Positions 1,608 through 21,903 of a stretch of DNA of 64,000 bases are shown here, one piece after another. The DNA is from an uncultured Bacteroidales bacterium. GTDB taxonomy: Bacteria; Bacteroidota; Bacteroidia; Bacteroidales; ML635J-15. The translations under genes and the position numbers were made by a program. The stretch is from positions 242-64,241 of the forward strand of contig CAZEHA010000016.1 in NCBI GenBank assembly GCA_964511665.1, in the 5' to 3' direction. Below the pieces are notes generated by a model. That model saw only the letters and a program-made list of their open reading frames with translations. It ran no database searches and was not told the DNA's origin. Position 1 is the first letter of the stretch, and each line of letters opens with the position of its first letter.

Positions 1608-1633
1608 TGTGTTGGATAACTGACAGTTATAAC

Positions 1634-1669
1634 TGTCTTTTTATATAAGATAAATCGGGAATATTATTG
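1634..1669 (+). promoter_or_regulatory. Putative phage late promoter (TGTCTTTT-N20-TATTATTG)
   Basis: One of 7 intergenic copies with the same 28-nt offset; precedes the protease-capsid-tail operon. Confidence 0.65.
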
Positions 1670-1685
1670 TGCAAACAATTGACCG

Positions 1686-2546
1686 ATGTCGCAAATTCTT
1701 AACGAAATTCTTAAAGGGAGCAACTTATACTGCAAGCGCAGCGACTTTGTTTCGTTTCTCTATACAATTTTCGAGAAAACCGGCCAGCAACCCAGCCAAA
1801 AAACGGCCTATCCCCTATTATATATAAATGGTGCCGGTGAAATTAATACTGATCCCAAGGCCGAATCCGGCAAAAAAATTGCCATTGTGCCTATTTCTGG
1901 TCTCATGACCAAATATGGCGACTGGTGGACTTATGGAATAGCCGAAATTGGGGAATACATTCTCGATCTGTATAATTCTGCCGATATAGAAGGCATAATT
2001 GTTAAATACGATACCGGTGGCGGAACCATGGGCGCAATTATCGAACTGGAATCCATATTCGGAATGCGCAATAAACCGGTTTTCTCACTTATCGACAGTA
2101 ATTGCTATTCGGCCGGAATTTATACTGCAATGTTTACCGATGGCATTTTTGCAACAAACTCGAAATGCGGTGTTGGTAGTGTTGGCGTTATGACACGCAT
2201 TATAGACGATAGCAAGCTTCTCGAAAATTGGGGTATTGTGGTCCGCGAAGTATATCCCCCCGAAAGCAAATTCAAAAACAAAGCAATCAACGAAGCTATT
2301 GCCGGCAATGATGCATTGTTGATTGAGGAAATATTGTCGCCGATGGCAATTATGTTTCAGAATGCCGTAAAAAACGCCCGGCCAAACCTCGATATGTCGG
2401 TTGAAGGCATAATTGAGGGTAAAGATTTCTTTGCCGACAAGGCCGTAGATGCAAAAATGATTGATGGCATTAAAACCATGCCCGAAATGATTCAGCACGT
2501 ATTGAACTACACTACAGGCAAAACCATTCAAAATGTTCTCACCTAA
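1686..2546 (+). CDS. S49 (SppA/ClpP-fold) prohead protease
   Basis: IAIVPISGLM, DTGGG, CYSAGIY (catalytic Ser region), VGSVGV motifs; directly upstream of capsid. Confidence 0.85.
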   Translation: MSQILNEILKGSNLYCKRSDFVSFLYTIFEKTGQQPSQKTAYPLLYINGAGEINTDPKAESGKKIAIVPISGLMTKYGDWWTYGIAEIGEYILDLYNSADIEGIIVKYDTGGGTMGAIIELESIFGMRNKPVFSLIDSNCYSAGIYTAMFTDGIFATNSKCGVGSVGVMTRIIDDSKLLENWGIVVREVYPPESKFKNKAINEAIAGNDALLIEEILSPMAIMFQNAVKNARPNLDMSVEGIIEGKDFFADKAVDAKMIDGIKTMPEMIQHVLNYTTGKTIQNVLT

Positions 2547-2559
2547 ACTGTAATAAATT

Positions 2560-4587
2560 ATGAAAAAACGATTCATTGCGTTACTTGCACGTCTCGGATT
2601 CACCGATAAAGCAAAAAACAACCAGCTCACCGCTGAAGAAACCAGCCAATTGAACGCCGAGTGCGTGAAAGAACTTGGAATGGAACTGAAAAAGGTAATG
2701 GAAAAAATTACCAGTGAACAAAACAACCCCGACAGCGAAATGTTGTCGCAAATTTCGTCATTGTTGGCCGAAAACACCGACACTGAAGAAGATGACGAAG
2801 ATGATGACGAAACCAATGCCGAAGGCGAAGAGACTGAAGACGAAGACGACGACGACGAAGAACCCGAAGCTAAGAAAAAAGGCCAGAAGAATCTTCTAAA
2901 AAAAGTGAACAGCATTGTCGGTGCCAACAAAAAAATGCAACAGCAGATAAAAACCCTTGCCGAAAGGCAGGAGCCTGCTACCCCCAAAAGGGTTCTGGAA
3001 GGAAAGAAAATTGTTGCTTTTGGCGGAGCCCACACCGCTTCGCATCTGTTTGGCGTTACCGGTGCAGCTTTCGAACTGGCAAAGCCGTGGAATGCACGTG
3101 CCGCTAAGCACACTGCCCCCACCGAACGTTATTCAGAAGACGAACGCGAAATGTTGTTCCGTGATTTCAATGCCTACGGCAAAGAATTGAGCTCGCGTTA
3201 TGCACATCTGCATACCAATGGATTGTTGGGTGTTTTGGCTGCCGGCAACATGGATTACTCCGAACTCGAAAGTGACCTCGGAGCATATTACCGCGTACGT
3301 CGTCAGGATGCTATCATCGACCGCATTCGTCAGCTGCCCTCGATTGCTTCCATTTTCCCGGTTGTTTACAACATTCAGGACGAACAGGCAATGGTTGATG
3401 TTTTCGCCAGCGGAAGCTTCACCCAGGCATATCAGGCCGGCCGCGTTTTCTCGGGTGGTTTCGCATTCGAACCCCAAAAAGCAAAGGTAAAAGATGTGAT
3501 GTTCAAGTATCTGTTCAGCGACCTGAAAGACCTGGAAACTCAATACATCGGTTATCTGAATCAGGAAGGTTCCGACCCGATTAAATGGGCTTTTATTGAA
3601 TGGATCATGATGAAATGCGCCATCATTCAGCACAACGAAAAAGAGTTGCGCAGGGTGAAAGGCTACCGGGTGGAATCAACCACAGGTAAAGCTGCACATT
3701 TCATGTATGCCAGTACTGGATTCCTTCACACTGTTGAAGATCAGTACGAAAAGGAAAACCGCGTGTACGTATTCCCCACGAAACGTGCCTACACAAAAGC
3801 AACAATTCTCGACTATGTTCGCGCATTTGTTGAAGATGTGTTCATGATGAAGGATAATGTTACCGAAATATCCGAAATGCCCCTGTTCATGAACGCCAAA
3901 CACGTTCCATGGTTCAAGGAAGCATACCGTGAAAAATACGGTGAGCAAAGCGATTTTCAGGGCGAAAAAATGGAAGTGAAAGACTATCCAATGCCCAAAA
4001 TCGTTGCTATCCCCAACATGGGCGCCACACGCTTCGACATGTTCATCATGCCCGAAAATGCAGTAGAAATTCACGAAAACAAACCAGGCGAATTTTACGC
4101 ATACTACTTCCAGCGCGACCTCGAAAACCTGATGGTTTGCACCTACGGTAAAGAGGGAACATTCACATTCGGAGGCCGCAAACATGCAACCCGTGCTGCT
4201 CTTGAAGCTTCGAATGGTGCCGACACCAACATTTTCCGGAACAATCCGACTACCTTGCTTGCCGATGGCGCCACCACCTGCAATGCACTGGTAAACGAAA
4301 TGTTCGAAACTGTGAACAATACCGGCGCCACTGCCATCACCGACATTGTTGGTGCAAAACAGGGCAATGTGTACAAAATTCTCTGCGGAGGTACCACCAA
4401 TGCAACTACCATTGCAAAGACAAACAAATTCTCCGAGCTGACTGCAGCTTATATTCCCACCGCCGTTGGCGACTATCTGAAAGTAATCTACGATCCCGTT
4501 GACGAAAAGTTCCTCGAACTCGAACGTAAAGTGGGTGGTACTATCGCCGTGAACGCCAGTGTTAAAGCACCGGAATACGTGGCATAA
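2560..4587 (+). CDS. Major capsid protein with N-terminal acidic/coiled scaffold-like region and C-terminal extra domain
   Basis: 675 aa, follows the protease, poly-D/E tract in the N-terminal ~130 aa, followed by a strong hairpin. Confidence 0.75.
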   Translation: MKKRFIALLARLGFTDKAKNNQLTAEETSQLNAECVKELGMELKKVMEKITSEQNNPDSEMLSQISSLLAENTDTEEDDEDDDETNAEGEETEDEDDDDEEPEAKKKGQKNLLKKVNSIVGANKKMQQQIKTLAERQEPATPKRVLEGKKIVAFGGAHTASHLFGVTGAAFELAKPWNARAAKHTAPTERYSEDEREMLFRDFNAYGKELSSRYAHLHTNGLLGVLAAGNMDYSELESDLGAYYRVRRQDAIIDRIRQLPSIASIFPVVYNIQDEQAMVDVFASGSFTQAYQAGRVFSGGFAFEPQKAKVKDVMFKYLFSDLKDLETQYIGYLNQEGSDPIKWAFIEWIMMKCAIIQHNEKELRRVKGYRVESTTGKAAHFMYASTGFLHTVEDQYEKENRVYVFPTKRAYTKATILDYVRAFVEDVFMMKDNVTEISEMPLFMNAKHVPWFKEAYREKYGEQSDFQGEKMEVKDYPMPKIVAIPNMGATRFDMFIMPENAVEIHENKPGEFYAYYFQRDLENLMVCTYGKEGTFTFGGRKHATRAALEASNGADTNIFRNNPTTLLADGATTCNALVNEMFETVNNTGATAITDIVGAKQGNVYKILCGGTTNATTIAKTNKFSELTAAYIPTAVGDYLKVIYDPVDEKFLELERKVGGTIAVNASVKAPEYVA

Positions 4588-4593
4588 GTTAAC

Positions 4594-4617
4594 GGCTCCC
4601 GGCTTCTGTCGGGAGCC
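4594..4617 (+). other. Strong stem-loop after the capsid gene (mRNA stabiliser or partial terminator)
   Basis: GGCTCCCGGC-TTCT-GTCGGGAGCC with no clean U tract. Confidence 0.6.
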
Positions 4618-4650
4618 ATTATTGTTTCACCATTAAAAAAATAAAATAGC

Positions 4651-5658
4651 ATGAAAAAGCAAAACGCAAAACAGATAGCCTGGGCACAAAACAAAGTGCA
4701 AAATGCAACCCGAAGGTTGTTAACCAGGTTTGTAGTGATACTTACCCTTATTTTCGTTCTCCCGGCAGGTGTAATGTTTGCCATTGGCGACGAAAAGAGT
4801 GGCGAAATCGGAGCTGCAATAACAATAACCGGGGTTGGTCTGATGGCCTCTATCGGCAATATTGATGATGCGACTGCATCCGATAAATCGGGAAAATTGG
4901 TAAAAGCTAAGATGTGGATTATTTCGGAAGAAAGTTACGACGATTCTCAGCCTTTCCCTGCTCGTAATAATAGGCAGCGTGGCACAATACCGCTAAAAGC
5001 CGGAGAGTATTGGAAGTACATTAAAGCAGTTGAAGACAGTCTTGAACCGCTAAGTAATGGAGAATCAGCCGATGGAAATGATAAGATAGGCAACACACTA
5101 ACGTTTGTTGTGGGAGGCCTTGATGACAAAATTCAACAGCTTCTTGAGGGTGGTTTAGGCAAAGGTTTCTATATAGTTTGGGAAATCTGCGCAACCAACA
5201 CTAAATACCTTGGAGGCAATGGATGTAAAGCAATGCGATTAACAAAATTTGAGGGTGGGGCTGGTAAAGACCGCACAGGCTACACGCTAACATTTGAGAA
5301 CCAGTGTGGGGAACTATATTCCATCTACACCGGTACAATTAGCACCGAAGCCCCCGACACCGTTGCAGCCGACGAAACCGAAATAACGCTAACTTCAAAC
5401 TGCGCATACCAGCTTACTGATGGTTCGGTATCGGCAGTAGTGATTACCGGGTTCGATGGAGTTACCAGCGCCGATGTTGGCAGGATCCTGTCAATTTATG
5501 GTTCAGGTGGTACTTATCCCAGCACCATTACCGCGGCCAACGACTTCATTCTTACCGATGGAGAAACATGGACTGCAAGTTCGGGAAAACGCCTCGATGT
5601 TAAGGTTTTCAAAGATGGAGCCAGCTCCTACAAATTCATTGAGTTGAGTAGGGTATAG
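4651..5658 (+). CDS. Probable major tail tube protein with N-terminal hydrophobic leader
   Basis: Lies between the capsid and a -1 frameshift gene pair; beta-rich core (NTLTFVV..GYTLTFE); hydrophobic segment FVVILTLIFVLPAGVMFAIG. Confidence 0.6.
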   Translation: MKKQNAKQIAWAQNKVQNATRRLLTRFVVILTLIFVLPAGVMFAIGDEKSGEIGAAITITGVGLMASIGNIDDATASDKSGKLVKAKMWIISEESYDDSQPFPARNNRQRGTIPLKAGEYWKYIKAVEDSLEPLSNGESADGNDKIGNTLTFVVGGLDDKIQQLLEGGLGKGFYIVWEICATNTKYLGGNGCKAMRLTKFEGGAGKDRTGYTLTFENQCGELYSIYTGTISTEAPDTVAADETEITLTSNCAYQLTDGSVSAVVITGFDGVTSADVGRILSIYGSGGTYPSTITAANDFILTDGETWTASSGKRLDVKVFKDGASSYKFIELSRV

Positions 5659-5683
5659 TGGTTGTGTTTTAATTGGGTTACGG

Positions 5684-5710
5684 AAAAGCTCTCCTCGGGG
5701 AGCTTTTTTT
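5684..5710 (+). terminator. Rho-independent terminator
   Basis: AAAAGCTCTCC-TCG-GGGAGC followed by T7. Confidence 0.8.
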
Positions 5711-5711
5711 A

Positions 5712-5747
5712 TGTCCTTTGCTCAAAGTTGCTTCAAATCTAACTTTG
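5712..5747 (+). promoter_or_regulatory. Putative phage late promoter (TGTCCTTT-N20-TAACTTTG)
   Basis: Exact TGTCCTTT plus a perfect TAnnTTTG, immediately after a terminator. Confidence 0.75.
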
Positions 5748-5783
5748 AGCATTATCATTAAATTAAACTAATACATTGCTATC

Positions 5784-6377
5784 ATGAACAAACTCACTCC
5801 CGACCAAATCAACGACATGGTTGTTGCCAACGAAACAGCCGACGAAACAATATTTCAAGCCGATCTGAAACTTTACCGGCGTATGTTTCCGCACTCCAAA
5901 ATCATTAACGATCTCGAACGTGCTAACGAATTTACCCGGAAGGCACTCGATGGACGCATGCTCAAGGAGTTATTGAAAGAAATTTGCATCACCACAATTC
6001 ACGAGAACCGGTTGAAATTAACCATGAAAGCTCCGAAAATTGCCAAAAACGACAAAACCAACAAAACCAACACGCAACCAGATCCTGCCAACAATGAGGT
6101 AAGCGATAAGCTTAAAGCTGCTCAACAGGAACTACTTGCAATTGAAGATATTGCTACCATGAAGTACAATAAGTGCAAATCGTTATTGCTCCGGCTTGGT
6201 TTAAAGGTTGCTAAAAACGATACAGCAACCATTATGGCAGCGCTTAACGCACACAAGCAGCAGTTGCTTGACGCCATGCCTAAAGCAGACACTATTGCAG
6301 AAGAAGTAAGCAATGATGCTGCACATAATGCAGATGCTAATTTAGAAGGAGAAAAAAAAAGCGCGGACCAAGAATAG
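5784..6377 (+). CDS. Probable tail assembly chaperone (gpG-like, short product)
   Basis: Follows the tail tube gene; ends just after an A9 slippery run whose -1 frame is open into the next ORF. Confidence 0.55.
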   Translation: MNKLTPDQINDMVVANETADETIFQADLKLYRRMFPHSKIINDLERANEFTRKALDGRMLKELLKEICITTIHENRLKLTMKAPKIAKNDKTNKTNTQPDPANNEVSDKLKAAQQELLAIEDIATMKYNKCKSLLLRLGLKVAKNDTATIMAALNAHKQQLLDAMPKADTIAEEVSNDAAHNADANLEGEKKSADQE

Positions 6378-6838
6378 AGTTCCCAGCCATACCTTGGGAG
6401 AATACACACGATCGTAATGTACAACTGTGCATGGTGCTATATAACGACCGTGTGTTTTCTTTTGAGAGAGCTGCAAGCATCGAACACATAATAGACGCCA
6501 ACCCCAGTGAAGATAACGTAAAAGAATTGGTTAAGTGGAACAGGCGCAACCGCCAGGCACAAGAGGAACTGGTTAGCTACAATACCCACTCTCGATTCCT
6601 ATTTGTCCATCCACTTACTAAAGACTACCAAACAGCTAACGAATACATACTGTTGAAGCAGAATCAACCCAATAAGTTTTTTGATGAAGTAAGCAATGCG
6701 AAGAAGTATATCGAAAGGTATAAGAGCCTGCTGAAAAATAAGAAATACAAGGACCAGGAAGAGTATGTAAAGTTCTCCGGGCATTTGGCTAACTACGAAC
6801 ACAAGCTCGAAATGATGCAGACAGTACTTAATGCCTAA
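6350..6838 (+). CDS. Frameshift extension (gpT-like); ORF track calls 6431-6838
   Basis: Open -1 frame from the slippery site to TAA at 6838; ATG 6431 lacks an A-rich initiation region. Confidence 0.65.
   Translation, partial: RKKKRGPRIEFPAIPWENTHDRNVQLCMVLYNDRVFSFERAASIEHIIDANPSEDNVKELVKWNRRNRQAQEELVSYNTHSRFLFVHPLTKDYQTANEYILLKQNQPNKFFDEVSNAKKYIERYKSLLKNKKYKDQEEYVKFSGHLANYEHKLEMMQTVLNA
6351..6360 (+). other. Programmed -1 frameshift / slippage site GAAAAAAAAA
   Basis: 0-frame GAA AAA AAA AGC; -1 frame reads KKRGPRIEFPAIPWENTHDRNVQLC-MVLY with no stop until 6838. Confidence 0.7.
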
Positions 6839-6863
6839 TAACAAAAAATAGTTTCAATCAAGT

Positions 6864-6887
6864 AAGCGCACGCTGTGCGCTTTTTTT
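6864..6887 (+). terminator. Rho-independent terminator
   Basis: AAGCGCAC-GCT-GTGCGC followed by T7. Confidence 0.75.
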
Positions 6888-7120
6888 GTGTGCGTAAGTG
6901 TCGCAACGTATTGCGCTGCAATGCCTGTCATATTTCTGTTATTTTTGTTTTACAAAGTTTTACAATCGCTAAACTCAGCGTTGCGGTGGTAATTGTCATT
7001 TCAATGTTTTAAAAAATTTGAATATATATTTATAGCACTGTTAATCAGGCTATTATATATATTTTTTCTGACAAAACACACGAAAATAAAGCATATTGAA
7101 CCATATTTAATGTTTAACAA

Positions 7121-7156
7121 AGTCTTTTTGTAGTGTTTTGCCTGAAAATAGATTTG
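7121..7156 (+). promoter_or_regulatory. Putative phage late promoter variant (AGTCTTTT-N20-TAGATTTG)
   Basis: Same 28-nt offset; perfect -7 box; upstream box has 2 mismatches to TGTCCTTT. Confidence 0.55.
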
Positions 7157-7167
7157 CAATAAAAAAA

Positions 7168-7803
7168 TTGAACACAATAAAAGTTTATAATTTAAGCAAT
7201 CTACCCGTTGCAAACCTGCAAGACTTTAACGAATTGCAAGAAGATTTTAAAATATTTAATCCCGAAAAGAATAAAAAACTGCAAGATATTATTATTGACA
7301 GGGGTTTTAAATATGCGTTCAAAGCATGGCAGGGCGAAGACGGCAAGTTGTGGATAATTGATGCGCACCAACGAAAGGCTGCACTTATTGAACTGCAAAA
7401 AAAAGGGTATCATGTTCCGCCAATTCCTTACGAACTTATTTATGCCGAAAACAAACGCGATGCTGTAAAAGAAATTGCTGCATACAATAGTGAGTTTGCC
7501 GATAAAAATCCTGATACAATTTTATTCCAACAATATGATATTAGTGTTTCAGAATTAGAAGAATTTGAACTTAAGCAGATATCACTCGAAATTGACGAAA
7601 ATGTAAACTGGCACGAACTCGAAAACATTTCGACAAACCAACATCCACGCGACAACCAATATCGTATTAAATATGAGATTGTATTTGATAACGAAGGCCA
7701 ACAGGATAAGTGGTACAACTTCCTGAAAATGCTTAAGGACAGATATGTTGAATGCGAAACCATTGCCGAACGGATTACCAAATACATCGAAGAGCATGAG
7801 TGA
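7168..7803 (+). CDS. ParB/Srx-fold protein
   Basis: IIDRGFKYAFKAW..LWIIDAHQRKAAL ParB N-domain motif; probable start is TTG 7168 after an A-run (track start 7138 lies upstream of the -7 box). Confidence 0.75.
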   Translation: MNTIKVYNLSNLPVANLQDFNELQEDFKIFNPEKNKKLQDIIIDRGFKYAFKAWQGEDGKLWIIDAHQRKAALIELQKKGYHVPPIPYELIYAENKRDAVKEIAAYNSEFADKNPDTILFQQYDISVSELEEFELKQISLEIDENVNWHELENISTNQHPRDNQYRIKYEIVFDNEGQQDKWYNFLKMLKDRYVECETIAERITKYIEEHE

Positions 7804-8914
7804 ACGCAGCATGATACAACGTGTTGAGCTCGAAATGAATGTTTACGAAGCAGCCATTGAGCGAACTCGCGAAATCATTAACTCGCACGACCATGTTTTT
7901 GTTAGTTTTTCAGGCGGTAAAGACAGCCTCGTTGCTTTGTGCATAGTTGAAGAGGTTTATCGCCAAATGGGCATTAGCGATAAAATAAATGTCATTTTCA
8001 GGGATGAAGAGATTATACCTGATGATGTTGTGAATTTTGTTCAGGAAAAATATCATTCAGGTAAGTATAACTTTGGTTATTTCTGCCTGCAATTAAGGTC
8101 AGAAAAATATATACTGGGTAACAAATATGAATATATTCAATGGGATAAAAACCGCAATCATATACGTCCTATTCCTGAATTTGCCATTACCGACTGGAAC
8201 AATGTGTATGACCAATATAATTCTGGACCAATAACCACCAACTATGTAAAAGGTCGTAAATGTATTATAACCGGTATTCGCGCCGATGAAAGCCTGATGC
8301 GTTATCAAGGCATTGTTGCCAAAAAGAATAAACCACATGTGGCTGCCAGCATTGATGCCGATATTTGGATGGGGAGAATTATCTACGATTTTTCTGAAAA
8401 AGATATATTCAAATATTTGTACGATAACAAAGTGCCATACTGTACAATCTATGATATGCAGATGTTCAATGGTGAGGCAATGAGGGTTAGTACTCCGTTG
8501 CATGCTGAATCGGCAAAGAAGTTGTATAAGTTAAAAACAACATACCCAACATTCTACGATCAGATACTGGCTATATTCCCCGACATCGAACTACAGGCAC
8601 GGTACTACAACGACTTAGACCGATACTCGATAATGAACCGCTACGAACACTCGTTTAAAGGCATTGTTGACTATATAAATGAAAATGTTGATGAATCAAT
8701 GCGAAACATTGCTCTGAAAAGGGTTGCAGATGCACGTAAAACAAGAATTAACAATATCAAATCTGGGCATGGTGTATATGGTGGATATCCAGTATTGTAT
8801 GTTTTTAAAACAATAATTAATGGATCGTACAAACGTAAGCTATTACCTAAAAAAGACAGTAGTGTAACAGCTGTTGAAAAAGAATATGAATTGTGTTCAA
8901 ATAAACCAGTATAA
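7796..8914 (+). CDS. PAPS-reductase-family PP-loop protein (IbrA/YbdN-like)
   Basis: VSFSGGKDS PP-loop, FRDEE, TGIRADES..R, IYDFSEKDIF, MRVS; ATG 7796 overlaps the upstream stop (ATGAGTGA). Confidence 0.85.
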   Translation: MSERSMIQRVELEMNVYEAAIERTREIINSHDHVFVSFSGGKDSLVALCIVEEVYRQMGISDKINVIFRDEEIIPDDVVNFVQEKYHSGKYNFGYFCLQLRSEKYILGNKYEYIQWDKNRNHIRPIPEFAITDWNNVYDQYNSGPITTNYVKGRKCIITGIRADESLMRYQGIVAKKNKPHVAASIDADIWMGRIIYDFSEKDIFKYLYDNKVPYCTIYDMQMFNGEAMRVSTPLHAESAKKLYKLKTTYPTFYDQILAIFPDIELQARYYNDLDRYSIMNRYEHSFKGIVDYINENVDESMRNIALKRVADARKTRINNIKSGHGVYGGYPVLYVFKTIINGSYKRKLLPKKDSSVTAVEKEYELCSNKPV

Positions 8915-8916
8915 AT

Positions 8917-8947
8917 TTTGAAAACCGGAAACTAATTTTTATCTTTA
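8917..8947 (+). promoter_or_regulatory. Possible housekeeping-type Bacteroidetes promoter (TTTG-N19-TATCTTTA)
   Basis: -33/-7 like boxes with canonical spacing in a 49-bp gap before the HNH-like gene. Confidence 0.4.
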
Positions 8948-8963
8948 TGAACAGTTACAGACT

Positions 8964-9425
8964 ATGGTAATGAAAGAATACAACGGATTTAGTGGAGCTG
9001 AAAGAATGATGGTGCAGGCCATTATGAACGACATGCAAAAGCGTGGTATTATTTCATGGTCTGACAAATCATGTACAATTTGTGGCAGTAAAGGGGGCGA
9101 GATTCAGGCACATCTCGAAGACTACAGTAATGTTTTTGACTTTCACCCTATCTGCATCGAATGTCACATGAAGCTCCATATGAGGTTTAGGTTTCCGGGC
9201 TATTGGATTAAGCATCTGGTTGATGTTAATAACGGATATGTTTCACATCCGTTTAAAAATTCTTCAGAGTGGTTCAAATCGAAAAAGGGTAAATTTAGTA
9301 ATCCCGAATTCGACAATCTTGATCCGAAATTAATTGGCAATGAATGGTATCATAAGTTGTCACTAAAACAAAAAAACCTAAACAAATTCAGGCATTATGG
9401 AGACCATAAAGAAACAACCGATTAG
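8964..9425 (+). CDS. HNH-like Zn-binding protein / nuclease
   Basis: CTIC...AHLEDY...PICIECHMKLH pattern. Confidence 0.6.
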   Translation: MVMKEYNGFSGAERMMVQAIMNDMQKRGIISWSDKSCTICGSKGGEIQAHLEDYSNVFDFHPICIECHMKLHMRFRFPGYWIKHLVDVNNGYVSHPFKNSSEWFKSKKGKFSNPEFDNLDPKLIGNEWYHKLSLKQKNLNKFRHYGDHKETTD

Positions 9426-9909
9426 TAATATCGAATGGCGCGATGTTCGAGAGCTAAGCGCAAATGACTACAACCCCAATGTAGTATTAACACAGGAACT
9501 AAAACTGCTCGAATTCTCAATACTGAAAACAGGATGGATTCAACCCTTACTGATATCGGGAACCGACGTTATTATTGATGGTTTTCACCGTTATTGGCTA
9601 AGCCAGAATAGTAAATATCTTATTAAGCAATTCAATTATCATGCTCCTTGTGCAATTCTAAATATAAGTGAAGCTGAAAGAATGTTGCTTACCGTTAGAA
9701 TTAATAGGGCTAAAGGAAACCATGTTGCTGCTAAAATGCACGAACTGGTTACTAAACTGGTTATGGAACTTGCCATTAGCAAAGAAACAGTTGCATTAGA
9801 GATTGGAGCCAGCACAATGGAAGTTGATTTGCTACTTCAGGAAAATGTATTCACAAAATTGGATATTAAAAACCATAAATATTCTAATGCTTGGATACCT
9901 AAAAAATAA
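9397..9909 (+). CDS. ParB-like protein (IbrB/YbdM-like)
   Basis: ANDYNPN, ELKLLEFSI..GWIQP, IIDGFHR, TVRINRAKGNH. Confidence 0.85.
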   Translation: METIKKQPISNIEWRDVRELSANDYNPNVVLTQELKLLEFSILKTGWIQPLLISGTDVIIDGFHRYWLSQNSKYLIKQFNYHAPCAILNISEAERMLLTVRINRAKGNHVAAKMHELVTKLVMELAISKETVALEIGASTMEVDLLLQENVFTKLDIKNHKYSNAWIPKK

Positions 9910-10029
9910 ATATTTCTACAAAAATAATGTCTAAATATTTGTAAATCAATTAGATAATTTGTATTTTTATGTAAACATAAGTAGAAAATGAGGCGAAGAA
10001 TTAAAAGAGAATTCAAATATAAAACAAAG

Positions 10030-10056
10030 AGAAACCCGGGTTGCAGCCGGGTTTCT
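10030..10056. terminator. Hairpin / possible bidirectional terminator in the leader of the SymE-like operon
   Basis: AGAAACCCGG-GTTGCAG-CCGGGTTTCT, A-rich on the left and T-rich on the right. Confidence 0.6.
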
Positions 10057-10099
10057 TGTTTCAGGCTAATTCGAAGTTTAACCCAAAACCTAAGTTATT

Positions 10100-10372
10100 A
10101 TGAGCAAAAGTACAAAAGAAAAACGAATTATTCTACGGCATGAAGATTTCGTTATTGAAACGGTCAGTGCATGGAGCACTCAAGGTATTAAATTTAATAA
10201 AGGCAATATCAATATTTTGAAATATGCCTTTATGTCGCAGGTAGCATGGGCATTATACCGAAAACAATCTCTACCCGAAAGTATCAAAAACCAGTATCTG
10301 AGTTATCTGCAGACAAGTCTATGGCCAATGCCTCTAAGAATTGACCCAACCCAGCTCTATTTCAAATACTAA
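10100..10372 (+). CDS. Hypothetical moron protein
   Basis: 90 aa ORF closely spaced with downstream genes. Confidence 0.55.
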   Translation: MSKSTKEKRIILRHEDFVIETVSAWSTQGIKFNKGNINILKYAFMSQVAWALYRKQSLPESIKNQYLSYLQTSLWPMPLRIDPTQLYFKY

Positions 10373-10376
10373 GAGT

Positions 10377-10571
10377 ATGAAAAACGAAAGAATAATAAAA
10401 GTGTCTTCGATAACAAGAGTTTACGGAACACAATCATATTATAGAAATGGATATAGCAAGGTTCCTTTTATTCGATTAGCCGGTAGATACATTGAAAAAA
10501 TAGGCATTAATATCGGCGACTCTGTGAAAGTTGAATTTATCGATAACCAAATAATTATTTCAAAAATATGA
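10377..10571 (+). CDS. SymE-family / AbrB-fold small protein
   Basis: PFIRLAGRYIEKIGINIGDSVKVEFIDNQIII fits the SymE pattern P-x-I-x-L-x-G-x-x-x-E-x-x-G-x-x-x-G. Confidence 0.7.
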   Translation: MKNERIIKVSSITRVYGTQSYYRNGYSKVPFIRLAGRYIEKIGINIGDSVKVEFIDNQIIISKI

Positions 10572-11110
10572 GACCGAGAAGCATTGAGCAATTAAATCAA
10601 ATAGTTGGTAACAACAGGACTGTAATGGCAAACGTGAGGAACGGCATCAAAGCATGGGAAACAAGAAAAAAATTACTATTAGAAAATGCTATAAACAATG
10701 GTGTGAAACCTGACAAGCTATTTTCTGAGTACTGGGACGCAAAATTAGCATTGGATAACGATTACTCTAAGGAAGGAATTATTGCTAAGCATGTTTATAA
10801 AGTTCGCAGAGGTTGTTTTATACGATGGGGGGATAAGAATCATATTGACCGGATTATGTCAGCAAATTGGTTTTCATCCCAAGCTCAACCAATGGATTGT
10901 ATAGCACAAGAGTTAACTGAAATGTACAATATTCCAATAGACGAGAATGATATTGTAGAGTTCATAATTCAACACCCCGACAGGGATATGTACAAACCCA
11001 TTGTAAAGTATAATACGACAATTGCAATATTTAAGTATAGAGTAGGTTTTCATCCGAAAAATTACAAAAATAATTCGCCTGAATTTATATTGCAAGGTCT
11101 TCCATTTTAA
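10568..11110 (+). CDS. Hypothetical moron protein
   Basis: 180 aa ORF, ATGA overlap with the SymE-like gene; ends in LPF. Confidence 0.6.
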   Translation: MRPRSIEQLNQIVGNNRTVMANVRNGIKAWETRKKLLLENAINNGVKPDKLFSEYWDAKLALDNDYSKEGIIAKHVYKVRRGCFIRWGDKNHIDRIMSANWFSSQAQPMDCIAQELTEMYNIPIDENDIVEFIIQHPDRDMYKPIVKYNTTIAIFKYRVGFHPKNYKNNSPEFILQGLPF

Positions 11111-11146
11111 TGTCCTTTGTCTTCAATTATGATCTAATTATTATTG
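11111..11146 (+). promoter_or_regulatory. Putative phage late promoter (TGTCCTTT-N20-TATTATTG)
   Basis: Exact TGTCCTTT, 28-nt offset. Confidence 0.7.
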
Positions 11147-11150
11147 TTTC

Positions 11151-11459
11151 ATGGAAATTAATGATGAAATAATAAAAAAGGTCAAGAATTTTGGTGTCTT
11201 GGGAATTAGCTTCGATCAAGTTGCAACATTGCTTATGGTACCAGAACAACAAAAAACATTTATCATTGAACAACTTTCTAATCCTGGCAACGAACTATAT
11301 GAGGCTTATGCTTATGGGAGAGCTGTAGGCGATTATAATAAAGAAGCGAAGATGGAAAAGCTCGCCGAATCGGGCGACATGGATTCGATTAACACCCAGC
11401 GCATTTATCGAAAACAAAAAAAAGTTGACGATTTAAAGCGAAAGTTATTCGGATTATAG
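11151..11459 (+). CDS. Small HTH-like packaging protein (terminase small subunit candidate)
   Basis: GISFDQVATLLMV HTH-like segment, AYAYGRA, located upstream of TerL. Confidence 0.5.
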   Translation: MEINDEIIKKVKNFGVLGISFDQVATLLMVPEQQKTFIIEQLSNPGNELYEAYAYGRAVGDYNKEAKMEKLAESGDMDSINTQRIYRKQKKVDDLKRKLFGL

Positions 11460-11534
11460 TAATTTAGCACTGTCTGTTCATCATATCGGAGCAAATACGT
11501 AAAATTAACGGCTCCGCCCCTTGTTTCGGTTGTA

Positions 11535-11870
11535 ATGGCCGAAACGATTATACACCGGTATGATGACAGACAAAGGGTAGCGGAGTTTGCTTTTAATATG
11601 GAAATTGAAAATAAGATTTACCCAATGGTGCAACATAACAATGACTGGTATGTTGATTCATCAATTATCAATATAGTATCGGTGCAAAAAGCCCATACGT
11701 TGATTGACTCGAAAACTTATTTTAGAATAGTTGATGTACTGGTAGCATCTATTCCCGATAACTTTGAGAAAATACTTAATGCTTATGTGAACTATATTCT
11801 TGCAGTTAGAATATCAGAGAACACCAATGCTTATTCCAGAATGAAAAAAGAATTATTTGATGTAGGATAA
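11535..11870 (+). CDS. Hypothetical protein
   Basis: 111 aa ORF ending YSRMKKELFDVG. Confidence 0.55.
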   Translation: MAETIIHRYDDRQRVAEFAFNMEIENKIYPMVQHNNDWYVDSSIINIVSVQKAHTLIDSKTYFRIVDVLVASIPDNFEKILNAYVNYILAVRISENTNAYSRMKKELFDVG

Positions 11871-11873
11871 AGC

Positions 11874-11909
11874 TGTCCTTTCGCAAAAGCTACACTACAT
11901 CTAACTTGC
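11874..11909 (+). promoter_or_regulatory. Putative phage late promoter (TGTCCTTT-N20-TAACTTGC)
   Basis: Exact TGTCCTTT, 28-nt offset; precedes the terminase operon. Confidence 0.65.
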
Positions 11910-11925
11910 TGTAAATTTTACAGCA

Positions 11926-12552
11926 GTGATAGAATCATTTCGCAAAGTACCCATTGAAGCACTTAAGGAATTTCGACAGACCGGAATTTCGAAGTACATC
12001 CCGAACGACCTGCAACGATACATCCAACAAATTGACAGGGCAATAGAATTGTACCGATTCGACGGTAATATTTCGCGTGTTGCCGGTAAGTTAATCGCAG
12101 AGTTTGCCCAGGATGATTTAAGTATGAGCACGGCCAGAAGTCGTATTTACGATGCAATCAACTTGTTTCACCTGAACAATACGGTAAAAAATGTTGCTTG
12201 GGACAACTACTACGCCGATAAGATGGAAGATCTTGCAAAGCTCTCGATTGCAGCCGACAACATTACCGAAGCCCGCAGATGCTACGAAAAGGCACACGCC
12301 TTCAGAACATCACACAACGAAAACGACTACGACCCTGATAAACTGAGACCTGTCGAAAAAATTATTTCTCCCGAAGTAACTCCGCAACGATTGGGTTTGC
12401 ATGGCGACAACTTGAATAAAATGTGGATTAAAGCACAGCTATTCATTAACGAATTGCCAATTGAAGACAAAGAAAAAGCGCGACTTCTCAGAGAAGCCTC
12501 ACAAAATATTAACCTGCCAATAGACGTAGATCATGAAGACATTCCAAATTGA
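11926..12552 (+). CDS. Helical phage protein overlapping TerL (terminase small subunit candidate)
   Basis: 208 aa; overlaps the TerL start; LSMSTARSRIYDA helix. Confidence 0.55.
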   Translation: MIESFRKVPIEALKEFRQTGISKYIPNDLQRYIQQIDRAIELYRFDGNISRVAGKLIAEFAQDDLSMSTARSRIYDAINLFHLNNTVKNVAWDNYYADKMEDLAKLSIAADNITEARRCYEKAHAFRTSHNENDYDPDKLRPVEKIISPEVTPQRLGLHGDNLNKMWIKAQLFINELPIEDKEKARLLREASQNINLPIDVDHEDIPN

Positions 12553-14245
12553 CACCAACCGGTTTGAACTGGAATATTATTCTGTTCTCCAGCATCATGC
12601 ATTACTGGCCGATACGCAAAACCTGTTTGGCGAGATTGGCAGGGGTGCCGGTAAGAGTACCCACATAATGACCCCCAGAATTGAGCGTGTAACCTACGAT
12701 ATGAAGCGCAGTATATCGCTGCTATTGTGTGCTACCTATACCTCATTGCTCGACAATATTATTCCGGCAATGACTGAATACCTTAATAAAAACTACCGCC
12801 GTGGCATTCATTACGAATATGGCAAAAAACCCCCAAGCCATTTCCTGTTGCCTTACCGTGATGTTCCCGACTGGAAACGCACACTATCATTTGCATGGGG
12901 TTCGGTAGTTCGGTTCGGTTCTATCGACCGGCCGGAATCTATTCTGGGCTCCGACTTTGTGCATGTGTTTACCGATGAACTTTTGCGGATAAAAGAAACC
13001 GCATTTGTTGAACGGGTGCTCCCGACACTTCGTGGCAACCGTACCCTGTTTGGTAATTCGCCCTATTACGGTGGAATCACCGGCACATCATCAACACCCA
13101 ACTTTGAGAACGACTACGACTGGTGGCTGGCTCAGGAACAAAACACGAATCGTGAGCTGATTGATTATATTATGAGTATTGCTTTAAGGGTGCATCACGC
13201 TAAGTACTACGAAAAAACATCGGAGTCGGCCAAAGAAATCGAAAAGTATAGGCGGTTCATCAAGCGATGGGAAGAAAGGCTGGTAGAATGCAGGCAAGGA
13301 CAAACTACCTACTTAAAAGGCAGCTCGTTTACCAACCTGGCAGTATTAGGACTTGAATACATTACTAACCAGTACAAAGGTTCGGCAGCCAATATCGAGA
13401 AATTTAATCTATCGATTCTCGGGATTCGGCCAAAAAAAGTAGGAGAAATGTTTTTCGGCAGGTTTGGTAAACAACATATTTATACCGACAGCTACGATTA
13501 TGGCAACATCGACAGTATAGACCGGCATCTGTTCGAAGAAAAAGGCAGTAGTATAATTGCCGATGGACATAGCAAGACTTCGCTTGACCTGAAATACTGC
13601 GACCCCAATAAACCGATTATTGCAGGCTTCGACCCCGGGCACTTTATGAGTATTGTATTTGCGCAGGAAAATACGAAATATGGCAAGGCTGAATTGAGGG
13701 TTTTTAAAAATATGTATGTTACCCATCCGGAACAACATTTTGAACTGGCGCAAAAAATTGCATTGTTCTTTAAAAACCACAAGCGCAAGAAAATATTTTT
13801 GTATTATGACCGTGCAGCCAATCAGCGGAAGAAAGTGTATGAGAACAACCAAAGCGGAAAAACCGATGCACGTATTCTGCAGAAGCATCTTAAAGATTTA
13901 GGATGGGAAGCCGAACTTAAGGACCTTGGGCGCGAAACAATTTATCACAAGTTGCATTATATTTTGTTGAATATTCTTTTTGGTGAAAGGCAATCCAATA
14001 CTCCGCGTATTAAAATATGCCAATACGAGTGTGAGGAACTTGTTTCGAGTATTTACATGAGCCCTCTTAAGCGATTGGGTGGAGAAATATTCCTCGATAA
14101 ATCGAGTGAAGATAAACTCGACCTCGAAGATCAGGCCTTGTGGAGTACCCAAATTGCAACCTCGTTGATGTATATGCTTTACGGGTTATATCAGAAGTAT
14201 ATGCCAGGCGATACTATTGAATACTCGCATTATTCCGGCTTGTAG
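12533..14245 (+). CDS. Terminase large subunit
   Basis: Walker A GRGAGKST, Walker B VHVFTDE, motif III-like TSS, RNase H-fold IIAGFDPG and YYDRA. Confidence 0.85.
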   Translation: MKTFQIDTNRFELEYYSVLQHHALLADTQNLFGEIGRGAGKSTHIMTPRIERVTYDMKRSISLLLCATYTSLLDNIIPAMTEYLNKNYRRGIHYEYGKKPPSHFLLPYRDVPDWKRTLSFAWGSVVRFGSIDRPESILGSDFVHVFTDELLRIKETAFVERVLPTLRGNRTLFGNSPYYGGITGTSSTPNFENDYDWWLAQEQNTNRELIDYIMSIALRVHHAKYYEKTSESAKEIEKYRRFIKRWEERLVECRQGQTTYLKGSSFTNLAVLGLEYITNQYKGSAANIEKFNLSILGIRPKKVGEMFFGRFGKQHIYTDSYDYGNIDSIDRHLFEEKGSSIIADGHSKTSLDLKYCDPNKPIIAGFDPGHFMSIVFAQENTKYGKAELRVFKNMYVTHPEQHFELAQKIALFFKNHKRKKIFLYYDRAANQRKKVYENNQSGKTDARILQKHLKDLGWEAELKDLGRETIYHKLHYILLNILFGERQSNTPRIKICQYECEELVSSIYMSPLKRLGGEIFLDKSSEDKLDLEDQALWSTQIATSLMYMLYGLYQKYMPGDTIEYSHYSGL

Positions 14246-14246
14246 T

Positions 14247-14282: not shown

Positions 14283-14286
14283 TACT

Positions 14287-16090: not shown

Positions 16091-16091
16091 C

Positions 16092-18208: not shown

Positions 18209-18209
18209 T

Positions 18210-19168: not shown

Positions 19169-19177
19169 TGATGTGTT

Positions 19178-21865
19178 ATGGCAAAAAAACTATCTGATGA
19201 AGTCCTGAAATGGACCATAGAAATAAACGGCGACCAAGCCCGTAAATCGTTGCACGAACTGGAGCAAACAACCCGTGAACTTGAAGGCACCAACAAAAGC
19301 CTGAAAACCGAACTGGCTAAGCTCGAAGCTCAGGGTAAAAAAAACACGGCTGAATATGATGCCATAAGCAAATCAATTACGAATAACAATAAGGTTATTC
19401 AGGGTAACAAGCAACAGATGGCAGCCTTACGAGAAGAAATTGGCATTACCGGATTAACTATGCGCGAACTGCGCAGTCGTGCAAAAGAGTTACAGAACCA
19501 ACTCGATAACATGACTCCCGAAAGTGATAGTTATAATATTTTGCAGGGAGAATTGGTTAAAGTAAGATCGCGCATGGACGAACTCCGCATTTCAACAAAA
19601 GCTATGGGTTCCGACCAGAACAGCCTAAAAAAAACTACCGAAGGAGTACAGCTATCGCTTGGCGAAATGAAGAAGGAACTACGTGAACTGCGCAATATGA
19701 GTTTTGCCGGTATGAACCCCGAAGAAATTAAGCAAATTCGTGAACGCATGGCACGACTTACCGAAGAAATACGAGATTTCCAAGAACAAAATATGGCTGC
19801 TTCTGAATCTGGAATACCGGCTTTTGTTGCCGGATTACAGGGCATAGTGGCTAGTGTGCAGCTTGTTACCGGTACGTTATCTCTCTTCGGAATAGAAAAC
19901 GAGAAACTTGAAAAAAGCATGGTGCAGCTTATTGGTGTAGCACAGGCACTAGCTACCGTAGAGGATATATATGCCAGAGGCAAATTTAAAGTCATGGCAG
20001 CTACGGCTCAAGACACCATCGAAAAGGTTAAAAATACAGTGGCAACCAAAGGGCAAACCCTCGCTACAGAGGGGGCTACAATTGCTACCAGGCTATTAGG
20101 CAAAGCAATGACAAGTATGCCCTTGCTAACAGTTATTGCAGGTTTAACAGCCATTGCAGCTGGAATAGCTGTTTTGATAGTTAGAATGCGTAGCCAGATT
20201 AATACAACTAAATTGATTACCGATGCTACAAAAGCTGCGAATGAAGCAACAGCCGATGAGATTGCAAAAGTACAAGTTTTGGCAAAAGTTGCTAACGATA
20301 AAAATCAATCTCTTGAAAAAAGAAAATCTGCTATTGAGGAAATAAATAAAATATCGCCAGAGTATCTCGGAAATATCACGCTTGAAAATATTGGAACTCA
20401 AGAAAGTATAGATAAGATTAATGACTATATAATTGGAATACAACGCAAGGCAAAGGCAATGGCATACAACAAAATGCTAAGCGAGAAATATATAGAGCTT
20501 GCAGAGGCGGAAATGAACACATGGGAGTCGTTGGGAGCAGCACAAAAGGCATTTTACAAAATGACAGCATCAGGTGTAAGTGCACAATCGCAACACCAGA
20601 TAGCACAGGCACTTAGAGTCAACTCAATTTATGAAGAAATTGAAGCCATTAAGGAACTTGCCGCGGCTGAATATGATGCCAATAATGCAGGTGGCGGTGG
20701 TGGTGGTGGCGGTGGCAATAAAAATAACAATATAAATGAATTCAGTATTCCCGATGCCGATGACGATGCCGCCGAAGCAAGAGCCTTAGAACGGTTCAAT
20801 TATAGAATTGAGCTCGATAAACGAGAAGCTGATGAAAAATTGCGAATAAAAACACAGTTTGATAGTGCATTGAAGCAAAAAGAAAATGAAGCAATCGAAG
20901 AGCAAGAAGAAGTTATTCAAAATAAATTAGCAGCAGAGGAAGCTCGTAACCAAGTGCGCAGCGAACTTCGTTTGAACTCGGAACAGCAGATATATGAAGA
21001 ATCAAAAAAACAACTTGATTTTTACTTACACGAAAAATATATCTCAGAAGAGGAACATGCTAAGCTGCTGAAACAACTTGATGCCGACATGCTTAATAGT
21101 CGCATGCAAAAGTGGAATCAGGCTTTCGAGTTTATTGGAGAAATGGCCGGGCAATTTACCAATCTTGTTACCGGAATGATGGATGTTGAGCTTGAAAAAG
21201 CAGGAGACAATGAACGAAAGCAAAAACAGATTCGCAAAAAATATGCTGATTTGCAGTTTATTGCTACAATTGCAAGCATGTTTGCAAACCAAGGCCTTGG
21301 TGTAACAAAAATTTGGAGCGAATGGGGAGCTAATCCAGTATTGGCCGGCTTGCTTACCGGCGGCTTGCTTGCGGCCACCATTCCGCAAATTATGATGGCG
21401 CAAGCGCAACGCGCAAAAGTTAAGCAGCTTGCGACCGGCAATATTGGCGAGGTTATTGGCAAATCTGATGGTAGAACCTACAAACCTGATTTATTAAAAT
21501 CGGTTAAAACCGGTTTTTACAATAAACCATACATGGCTTTGTTTAACGAGAATCCTAACCGGCCGGAACTTGTTGTTGATGGTGCCACAACTGCAAAACT
21601 TAAATTAAACTATCCTGAAGTAGTTGAAACAATTAGGTATGTAAGCCAGCATGCAACCGGTAAGTACGATGCAATTACTGCACCTGGTAGCAGCACTACA
21701 ACATCACAAAATACAATACAGCGCAATAACGATCTTACTGCAGTACTAATAAATTCAGTTGAAAAACTGAACAATACAATTGATGATGGCATTGGAGTGT
21801 CATACGATAAACTCAATAAATCTGACAACGATATTACAAATGTTTTTTCGAAAACAACATTGTAG
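19178..21865 (+). CDS. Tape measure protein
   Basis: 895 aa, long coiled coils, Ala-rich hydrophobic segments, C-terminal NE..RPELVVD motif. Confidence 0.85.
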   Translation: MAKKLSDEVLKWTIEINGDQARKSLHELEQTTRELEGTNKSLKTELAKLEAQGKKNTAEYDAISKSITNNNKVIQGNKQQMAALREEIGITGLTMRELRSRAKELQNQLDNMTPESDSYNILQGELVKVRSRMDELRISTKAMGSDQNSLKKTTEGVQLSLGEMKKELRELRNMSFAGMNPEEIKQIRERMARLTEEIRDFQEQNMAASESGIPAFVAGLQGIVASVQLVTGTLSLFGIENEKLEKSMVQLIGVAQALATVEDIYARGKFKVMAATAQDTIEKVKNTVATKGQTLATEGATIATRLLGKAMTSMPLLTVIAGLTAIAAGIAVLIVRMRSQINTTKLITDATKAANEATADEIAKVQVLAKVANDKNQSLEKRKSAIEEINKISPEYLGNITLENIGTQESIDKINDYIIGIQRKAKAMAYNKMLSEKYIELAEAEMNTWESLGAAQKAFYKMTASGVSAQSQHQIAQALRVNSIYEEIEAIKELAAAEYDANNAGGGGGGGGGNKNNNINEFSIPDADDDAAEARALERFNYRIELDKREADEKLRIKTQFDSALKQKENEAIEEQEEVIQNKLAAEEARNQVRSELRLNSEQQIYEESKKQLDFYLHEKYISEEEHAKLLKQLDADMLNSRMQKWNQAFEFIGEMAGQFTNLVTGMMDVELEKAGDNERKQKQIRKKYADLQFIATIASMFANQGLGVTKIWSEWGANPVLAGLLTGGLLAATIPQIMMAQAQRAKVKQLATGNIGEVIGKSDGRTYKPDLLKSVKTGFYNKPYMALFNENPNRPELVVDGATTAKLKLNYPEVVETIRYVSQHATGKYDAITAPGSSTTTSQNTIQRNNDLTAVLINSVEKLNNTIDDGIGVSYDKLNKSDNDITNVFSKTTL

Positions 21866-21867
21866 TT

Positions 21868-21903
21868 TGTCCTTTCGCAAATAGAGCGTTTGCCATATTT
21901 TCA
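21868..21903 (+). promoter_or_regulatory. Putative phage late promoter (TGTCCTTT-N20-TATTTTCA)
   Basis: Exact TGTCCTTT, 28-nt offset; precedes the lysis and tail-tip genes. Confidence 0.65.

Follow-up and report, generated by a model that had tools for sequence, protein, structure and literature searches.

The window, by which we mean the whole 64,000-nt stretch of DNA analyzed here (G000:C16:242-64241, on a contig that begins 241 nt before the window start), comes from an uncultured Bacteroidales bacterium, in which bases 1 to ~33,100 hold the right-hand two thirds of a prophage. Seven sites in this prophage (P1 to P7; Table 1) share one arrangement, in which an 8-nt box is followed by an octamer resembling the -7 promoter element of the Bacteroidota. 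These sites had been listed in an earlier note made from the letters alone, and our analysis located all seven boxes and octamers exactly where that note had placed them, with the octamer 28 nt past the start of the box, i.e., with a 20-nt spacer, at every site, and with every site lying between plus-strand open reading frames (ORFs). It also confirmed that the sites precede separate gene blocks, namely the protease/capsid, accessory (ParB/PAPS-reductase), terminase, portal-tail and lysis blocks. We interpret the sites as putative promoters, which probably serve a temperate tailed phage of the Bacteroidales.

Architecture and genomic placement of the seven sites

The window contains exactly five copies of the box TGTCCTTT, all on the plus strand (P2 and P4 to P7), and two variant boxes, TGTCTTTT at P1 and AGTCTTTT at P3. 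Four of the five exact copies start 0-3 nt past the stop codon of the upstream gene, and the fifth directly follows a terminator hairpin. The primary sigma factor of the Bacteroidota (sigmaABfr) has the consensus TAnnTTTG at -7 and TTTG at -33, as given in the promoter passages of PMC7366714. Two of the seven octamers in the window are exact matches to TAnnTTTG (TAACTTTG and TAGATTTG) and the others carry 1-3 mismatches; octamers of the TAnnATTG type, such as that of P4, are common among related phages. At P4 the ATG lies 4 nt past the octamer, so that a leaderless mRNA is predicted, and small genes and the terminase genes lie downstream of P4 and P5. The genes downstream of P6 are a 106-amino acid (aa) gene, the portal gene, head-tail genes and the tape measure gene, while those downstream of P7 are a 94-aa gene, the amidase endolysin gene and large distal (tail) genes.

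The terminator-like hairpin with 12 pairs and a T run that closes the protease-capsid block abuts the box of P2, and the same terminator-then-box layout is present in the related prophage G021 (L009 15955). At P1 the box itself supplies the 3′ arm of a small hairpin (1622-1637), after which Ts follow, and the box likewise forms the 3′ arm of a terminator-like hairpin at several sites of relatives, which from the sequence looks like a compact overlap of terminator and promoter. No terminator precedes P4 to P7, and these four sites would therefore act as internal boosters over read-through. The proposal in the earlier note that the phage uses many dispersed late promoters rather than one long transcript thus stands as regards the dispersal of sites ahead of gene blocks, but read-through combined with internal promoters is as likely as a set of separate operons.

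It is the placement and spacing of the box, rather than its raw frequency, that set these sites apart. The five copies of TGTCCTTT in the window compare with 2.53 expected, a count reached in 11 of 100 shuffles and so not significant, and the relaxed motif WGTCYTTT is not enriched either (15 copies vs 11.1 expected); we therefore dropped motif counts as evidence in favor of placement and spacing tests. Intergenic DNA makes up 1,187 of the 29,140 nt of the gene array (4.1%), yet it holds all five exact copies, on one strand. The whole genome has 70 copies of TGTCCTTT, of which 7 lie outside ORFs of at least 100 aa; four of these 7 are phage sites, and the only ORF that overlaps the fifth phage site is an antisense ORF of 101 aa. 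The full arrangement GTCCTTT-N20-nAnnTT is found for 4 of the 6 GTCCTTT motifs in prophage DNA (41,750 bp), compared with 1 of 182 in host DNA (3,440,471 bp), and this sole host match (C81:4213) is inside a minus-strand gene and was judged to be a chance occurrence.

A position matrix trained only on 34 sites of other phages, with which we scanned both strands of the whole G000 genome, gave 78 matches, among which the five exact window sites rank 1, 2, 4, 5 and 12, P2 having the top score in the genome (25.2 bits). P3 scores 14.5 and ranks at about 17 genome-wide, and P1 falls below the matrix threshold. In five other host genomes a loose pattern gave 81 matches, with 24 of these inside the single prophage of each genome. 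The earlier note had named an equal frequency of the motif and spacing in host DNA as the outcome that would speak against a phage regulon; the host count, the matrix ranks and the five-host scan agree that no such equal frequency exists. We regard the five exact sites as solid. P1 is statistically weak, but it occupies the position upstream of the protease gene where relatives, including G021 and G061-G065, hold a bona fide box promoter, and P3 is plausible only. The early regions (contig C83, and positions 1-11,800 in G021) contain no GTCC-box promoter on either strand.

A tyrosine integrase gene adjoins a tRNA gene at the right prophage end, this tRNA gene being the probable attachment site, and host genes start at 33185. 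These include genes for TrkH, for lumazine synthase and for a C25 peptidase that bears a type IX secretion tail, and they place the host in the Bacteroidota. A search of phage records with the terminase found no close annotated relative, the best matches being 32-38% identical phages. In the accessory block the PAPS-reductase-like gene matches phrog_2302 (E 5e-92). This block has a GC content of 0.35, below that of its flanks, and is inserted between the head and terminase genes; G021 carries a different insert (KilA-N) in its place. A search for Rfam families in positions 1-34000 of the window returned only the tRNA. The host genome encodes two RpoD-like sigma genes (C41:26641-27345 and C76:7191-7898, with frames of 286 and 313 aa), both of which score under the TIGR02393 cut-off. 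The early region of the prophage appears to sit on contig C83 (8.35 kb), where we find a minus-strand CI-like helix-turn-helix (HTH) repressor, a small divergent gene, a 176-aa GerE/LuxR-type protein, a DnaC-like loader and a VapE-like primase/helicase; this linkage is suggested by the gene content and the identical layout in G021, not by the assembly.

Table 1. Sites, genes and other features of the prophage and of related elements (window coordinates unless a contig or locus is named).
Feature	Coordinates	Strand	Description
P1	1634..1669	+	Variant box TGTCTTTT, 20-nt spacer, -7 box TATTATTG; upstream of protease gene
P2	5712..5747	+	Box TGTCCTTT, 20-nt spacer, -7 box TAACTTTG; ATG 5784; two small genes
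P3	7121..7156	+	Variant box AGTCTTTT, 20-nt spacer, -7 box TAGATTTG; precedes accessory block; probable start codon TTG at 7168
P4	11111..11146	+	Box TGTCCTTT right after stop codon at 11110, 20-nt spacer, -7 box TATTATTG; ATG 11151
P5	11874..11909	+	Box TGTCCTTT, 20-nt spacer, -7 box TAACTTGC; ahead of small and large terminase genes; orthologous site in G021 (L010 79)
P6	14247..14282	+	Box TGTCCTTT 1 nt after terminase stop, 20-nt spacer, -7 box GACATTCG; ATG 14287 (4 nt)
P7	21868..21903	+	Box TGTCCTTT 2 nt after tape-measure stop, 20-nt spacer, -7 box TATTTTCA
ORF 690-1187	690-1187	+	165 aa; uncharacterised phage family; last conserved non-structural gene before the first box
Head-maturation protease	1686-2546	+	Gene downstream of P1
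Capsid module	after protease		Two large proteins
Terminator-like hairpin	5682..5709	+	Intrinsic type
Further terminators	4594-4617; 6864-6882		Capsid genes; end of the two small genes after P2
Accessory block	7138-11110	+	ParB-like, PAPS-reductase-like, HNH-like, second ParB-like, SymE/AbrB-like 76-aa ORF
Small terminase	GTG 11926	+	
Large terminase	12533-14245	+	TerL identity 32-38% to Porphyromonas, Flavobacterium and Cellulophaga phages
Portal-sized protein, tape measure, large distal proteins	after terminase	+	
Amidase endolysin	22203-23000	+	
BRO-N gene	within prophage		
Tyrosine integrase	31673-32890	-	Right prophage end
tRNA gene	33017-33091	-	Right prophage end, adjoins integrase
GerE/LuxR-type protein	C83 (L013) 1859-2389		176 aa; counterpart in G021 (L009 4978-5538); sizes 176-186 aa
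~135-aa early proteins	L039 13576-13974; L037 16777-17184; L035 18032-18643; L041 5903-6322 (-)		N-terminal GerE-type HTH; PF00196 E 3e-6 to 3e-4
GTCACA-class sites	L067 10489, 12237, 16266; L068 9234, 17959; L069 10553, 18870; L070 1555, 9787, 17990		Elements of G327 and G108

Conservation of box and spacing in related phages

Using terminase homology, we gathered related phages comprising an IMG/VR fragment (84% identity), an IMG/VR contig (56%), G021:C132 (65%) and ten Bacteroidales metagenome-assembled genome contigs (30-34%); these phages are kin, and counts across them overstate independence. Both after the large terminase gene and before the protease gene, at terminase identities of 30-65%, divergence has changed the spacer and the flanks but has spared the box, the octamer and the 20-nt distance between them. 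For example, the box after the large terminase is conserved in L001, L002, G021, G042/G061, G062, G064 and G065, with no conservation of the spacer. Across the window and 10 relatives the pattern nGTCCTTT-N20-nA..TT gave 41 matches, all on the gene strand, with 1-6 per locus (3-6 in the prophages examined at full length) and none in two loci, one of which (L017) has the variant TGTCCTGT at its protease promoter with the same spacing. In 14 IMG/VR loci we observed 21 matches on the gene strand vs 1 on the other.

Control counts over 391 kb from 20 phage loci demonstrated how rigid this arrangement is. A -7 box is present at exactly 20 nt from 30 of the 52 gene-strand GTCCTTT motifs, at 14 nt from one of them and at 15-19 or 21-26 nt from none, and none of the 25 GTCCTTT motifs on the opposite strand has a -7 box at 20 nt. 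When 34 sites of relatives were selected only on nA..TT, the octamer positions left free converged on TAnnTTTG (T in 27 of 34 at position 7, G in 31 of 34 at position 8 and T in 22 of 34 at position 1), which marks the downstream octamer as a true -7 element of the Bacteroidota. In these sites the octamer is followed, 5-7 nt further on, by a stretch rich in A, and in 49 of 50 sites the ATG of an ORF of at least 45 codons is found within 4-84 nt, at 4-6 nt in 10 of them, for which leaderless mRNAs are predicted, and at 12-21 nt in most of the others. The rescue of degenerate -7 boxes by an activator, as suggested in the earlier note, would be conjectural, and many sites of relatives have a perfect TAnnTTTG.

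Since an asymmetric, non-palindromic 8-mer lies at an invariant distance from a -7 element, across a free spacer and ahead of an A-rich start region and a nearby start codon, these sites have the anatomy of a promoter rather than that of an operator or an RNA signal, and we consider it very likely that they are a promoter class. The alternative, that the box is a repressor operator or a processing or antitermination site within a long late transcript, finds some support in the strand-specific, intergenic sites, which often directly follow a stop codon or provide the 3′ arm of a terminator hairpin, as would suit an RNA signal too. Neither a repressor site nor an RNA signal needs an exact 20-nt distance to a -7 consensus in the DNA, however, and the start region, the ATG mostly 4-21 nt downstream, the lack of any Rfam family other than the tRNA in positions 1-34000 and the non-palindromic box leave this alternative very improbable.

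The box also differs between phages, and this bears on who reads it. Two more remote elements found with the profile of the ORF 690-1187 family (here the ORF 690 family, discussed below), G407 and G327, come from one host genus (g37); G407 has six sites of the form TGTCCTAT-N20-nAnnTTnG, while G327, like the G108 element, has five nGTCACAn-N20-nAnnTTTA sites, all on the gene strand. The N20 arrangement is found for 5 of 9 gene-strand GTCACA motifs in both G327 and G108, vs 0 of 3 and 0 of 1 on the other strand. A host factor by itself cannot account for boxes of two types within a single host genus. In the GTCACA class the -7 element has shifted from TTTG to TTTA, which hints, on the basis of ten sites, that the reader influences both elements. 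The G327 and G108 elements carry remote homologues of ORF 690-1187, and in G108 the homologue is the first plus-strand gene after the host genes.

A second alternative is that the sites are constitutive or strong host sigmaA promoters, in which GTCC serves as an extended -33 or UP-like element without any phage factor and the lysogen silences its late genes in another way. The -7 element is indeed of host type, the TTT of the box coincides in part with the position of the host TTTG, and some sites have a perfect TAnnTTTG. The base following the TTT (position +8) is a G, however, in only 4 of the 34 sites of relatives (and in 2 of the 7 window sites), so the host -33 TTTG is not maintained, and the box variants CTAT, CTGT, CCGA and ACAG are entirely without TTT. 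In addition, the host makes no use of the arrangement beyond the single match inside a gene, matches in the five other hosts concentrate in the prophage, two elements of one host genus use different boxes, and constitutive structural and lysis promoters would be expected to harm the lysogen. We consider this alternative improbable, if slightly less so than the operator or RNA-signal alternative.

In distant relatives (L015 ~11700-11966, L019 ~11760-11911, L021 ~11720-11855, and also L017, L018, L020 and L022), a conserved ~90-nt noncoding element, GAAGATG.GCCCG.CGCCGCTGGTTTT...CTTGYAATGCA...GGAAATATGAC, lies between the terminase stop codon and the box. This element, which could be a packaging (cos/pac) site or a small RNA, is absent in the window phage, whose gap in that place is 41 nt.

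Candidate readers of the box

We favor, as moderately probable, the reading that the seven sites belong to a phage-specific promoter class that drives the morphogenesis, packaging and lysis genes and is read with the help of a phage-encoded factor. That a phage factor is needed at all is likely, and because the host genome does not use the box and the phages of one host genus use different boxes, the reader of the box is most likely phage-encoded. Each promoter would combine a host sigmaA-type -7 element, TAnnnTTG and often degenerate, with an asymmetric upstream box, nGTCCTnT (core GTCC), exactly 20 nt before it. The box would lie at about -41 to -34, in place of the host -33 TTTG, and judging from the geometry of the consensus it would occupy the seat of sigma region 4 or of a class-II activator. 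Transcription would start 4-7 nt past the octamer and yield leaderless mRNAs or mRNAs with very short leaders. The phage factor, made from the early or middle transcript, would sit on, or replace, the region-4 contact of the holoenzyme, as a class-II-type activator, a sigma appropriator or a sigma-like protein. The proposal of the earlier note, a phage promoter class that joins a box at the -33 position to a Bacteroidota -7 element, holds for its architecture, its dispersal, its conservation in relatives and its absence from the host, whereas activator binding, lateness and the transcription start belong to the interpretation.

Our preferred candidate for this factor is the family of ORF 690-1187, with an early GerE/LuxR-type HTH protein on C83 as the second. 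The earlier note had singled out ORF 690-1187, and its placement was confirmed: the family lies directly upstream of the first box in every related phage examined, and in all 10 terminase-sampled phages that have enough flank the gene precedes the protease promoter by 0.1-3 kb. No box of its own is present upstream of this gene, and its position would by analogy be the classical late-activator position at the end of the early/middle transcript. For an independent sample, Bacteroidales genomes were drawn only with the ORF 690 profile, which matched in 34 of 401 genomes. After removal of L079 (the same phage as L015), and with the 3 of 28 loci that have <1 kb of downstream flank left out, 19 of the 25 loci with at least 1 kb contain a GTCCTTT promoter downstream on the gene strand. 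The opposite strand of these loci has no box promoter, and the upstream flanks, 38.4 kb in all, have none either. Most of the remaining loci carry variants (AGTCCCGA in three and GTCCTTC in one).

ORF 690-1187 itself has no Pfam (E<=0.01) or PHROG match, and a search of 130 family members against Pfam returned 7 unrelated families, each matched by a single member. A word-based sequence search found 2 proteins, while a profile built from nine relatives found 666 cluster representatives at E<=1e-3, of which 214 reach E<=1e-10, most being 150-190 aa long; as these are 50% identity clusters, 666 is a lower bound for the family. The wide family alignments lack a sufficiently conserved stretch for finding related loci, and a subfamily alignment served instead. 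An AlphaFold2 model based on the family alignment (predicted local distance difference test score, pLDDT, 94.2; predicted template modeling score, pTM, 0.87) shows a small alpha/beta part at the N terminus and, at the C terminus, three helices, of which the last is long and basic, and F127, K143 and R147 are near-invariant in the family. Neither a sequence profile search of PDB (best E 0.053) nor a Foldseek search of PDB with the model (best E 1.4) gave a match, VIA-align matched only the C-terminal helices at noise level (best Z 4.9, including HTH-type modules), and a search of the ESM Atlas returned only hypothetical phage or Bacteroidota proteins. In L080 and L078, two tandem ~25-nt copies (AGTCGTGATGATGTCCCATAAAA type) directly follow the ORF 690 homologue, within the first ~110 nt and ahead of the next small gene, and other repeats occupy the same place in L083-L085; these tandem repeats, with GTC/GTCC cores, could be a second kind of regulatory site.

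The second candidate rests on the early region. The C83 protein contains a GerE domain (PF00196 E 5.9e-14, 51.9 bits vs a cut-off of 23.5) and matches PHROG families annotated as “transcriptional regulator” (1.3e-32) and, weakly and to the HTH, as “sigma factor” (3.7e-6). Its residues 113-175 match by profile the DNA-binding domains of VraR, NarL and GerE, and four cysteines that precede this LuxR/GerE HTH (C71, C94, C100 and C107) are invariant in the protein and its counterpart in G021; both may be metal- or redox-sensing phage regulators. Distant phages encode, also in their early regions, ~135-aa proteins with a GerE-type HTH and, by eye, a hydrophobic C-terminal segment, a composition that suggests a membrane-tethered transcription factor.

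These proteins open a third alternative, namely that an early phage sigma-like or GerE/LuxR-type protein reads the box directly and that the ORF 690 family has another role. GerE and sigma region 4 share a fold, the GerE-type gene comes second in the rightward early operon of G000 as well as of G021, and the change of the -7 element to TTTA in the GTCACA class fits a factor that touches both elements. Weighing on the other side, only the C-terminal HTH of the C83 protein matches solved LuxR/NarL-type domains, with no sigma factor among its 54 matches, and we detected no Sigma70_r2/r4 domain in the ORFs of the window, of C83 or of positions 1-20 kb in G021. The two GerE architectures are not orthologous outside the HTH. 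In G327, G108 and G407 we found no GerE-type gene in the 10 kb that precede the ORF 690 family gene, and BLAST detected none in G063. The box, moreover, is a single asymmetric 8-mer, while LuxR-type proteins usually bind to repeats, in the form of dimers. A search for phrog_10300 in five host genomes was rejected as a lead, as it found only generic LuxR HTHs of host response regulators, away from prophages. We regard direct reading by such a protein, with another role for the ORF 690 family, as unlikely. If a phage factor is needed, the chance that it is the GerE-type protein seems to us small but appreciable, and the chance that it is the ORF 690 family is better, if still somewhat short of even; some other protein accounts for the remaining probability.

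Several observations weigh against the phage-factor reading, or against ORF 690-1187 as the reader, and should be set beside the evidence above. Promoter function, which we infer from sequence only, late timing, the need for a phage factor and the identity of that factor are all steps of interpretation; P1 and P3 are weak matrix matches; and the perfect -7 boxes at several sites might work with host sigmaA alone. The association between ORF 690 and the box is strong, yet conserved synteny within one phage lineage may also yield it. No recognizable DNA-binding or sigma-like fold was found in the ORF 690 protein by the structure comparisons described above, and plausible activators of the GerE/LuxR type are encoded in the early regions of 6 of the 7 fully examined phages. 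By inspection of the alignment, no residue pattern in the C-terminal helix of ORF 690 tracks the box variants CTTT, CCGA, CTAT or ACAG, and loci with AGTCCCGA and with AGTCCTTT have near-identical C-terminal helices.

Relation to known promoter systems and significance

The functionally closest model, by analogy, would be the middle promoters of T4, in which a MotA box and a host -10 element are read via sigma appropriation by MotA/AsiA. In both systems, as far as the sequence architecture tells, the host downstream element is kept, the upstream element is a phage-specific asymmetric box at a fixed distance, and there are many dispersed promoters, with a box that the host does not use. The MotA box is centred near -30, whereas the box described here would be located further upstream (about -41 to -34, with a 20-nt spacer), the genes served would be late structural and lysis genes rather than middle genes, and the host sigmaA is of the Bacteroidota -7/-33 type. 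Pfam and PHROG searches found no MotA/AsiA homologue among 33 window ORFs and 15 C83 ORFs. The late promoters of SPO1 (gp28/gp33-34) and T4 (gp55) are likewise defined as a temporal class by a phage-specific consensus, but their alternative sigmas replace or dispense with the host -10 specificity, while the GTCC class keeps a host-like -7 element and the scanned ORFs contain no sigma-70 region 2/4 domain.

RinA, ArpU and LtrC of Gram-positive temperate phages are small phage proteins encoded directly upstream of the packaging/structural module and proposed to turn on late transcription, and ORF 690-1187 is placed likewise, without any sequence or Pfam relationship to them. The binding site of RinA-type proteins is not known to be a box at the -33 position. 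RinA is described in PMC3152322 as acting at one promoter upstream of terS, compared with 5-7 putative promoters across the late region here.

Compared with the sigmaABfr promoters of the host, the phage sites share the -7 consensus and the overall distance between elements (TTT plus 20 nt equals TTTG plus 19 nt). They differ in their upstream element (nGTCCTnT, not TTTG), in their invariant spacing and in their absence from the promoters of host genes. They also differ in the position of the ATG, which is mostly within 4-21 nt here, whereas ~3.7% of the 5′ untranslated regions of B. thetaiotaomicron are <10 nt by the figure given in PMC7366714.

In full-text literature, a scope outside which most subscription journals fall, we found no description of this motif, nor of a late activator or late transcription control in temperate phages of the Bacteroidales. 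The promoter class is probably a phage-specific hybrid late promoter of an undescribed kind, and its reader may be a new protein class. More tentatively, and on the unlikely side, the ORF 690 family could be a new class of promoter-specificity factor that docks on the Bacteroidota holoenzyme and reads a GTCC box rigidly spaced from the -7 element, a Bacteroidota counterpart of sigma appropriation in T4, with sister clades reading GTCACA together with a changed -7 element.

Bacteroidales temperate phages are abundant in the gut and in other anaerobic communities, and in thousands of genomes of uncultured phages the promoter signature would flag late operons and the starts of genes, leaderless ones among them. 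It would also point to the regulator and would offer tightly phage-dependent promoters for Bacteroides genetic tools, for which the GTCC and GTCACA classes are possibly orthogonal factor/promoter pairs. The system would also serve as a test case for the redirection of the Bacteroidota sigmaA, which is unusual in its -7/-33 architecture. If the ORF 690 family is indeed the reader, nature would have supplied orthogonal factor/promoter pairs, and a late-transcription switch would be defined for the first time in temperate phages of the Bacteroidales.

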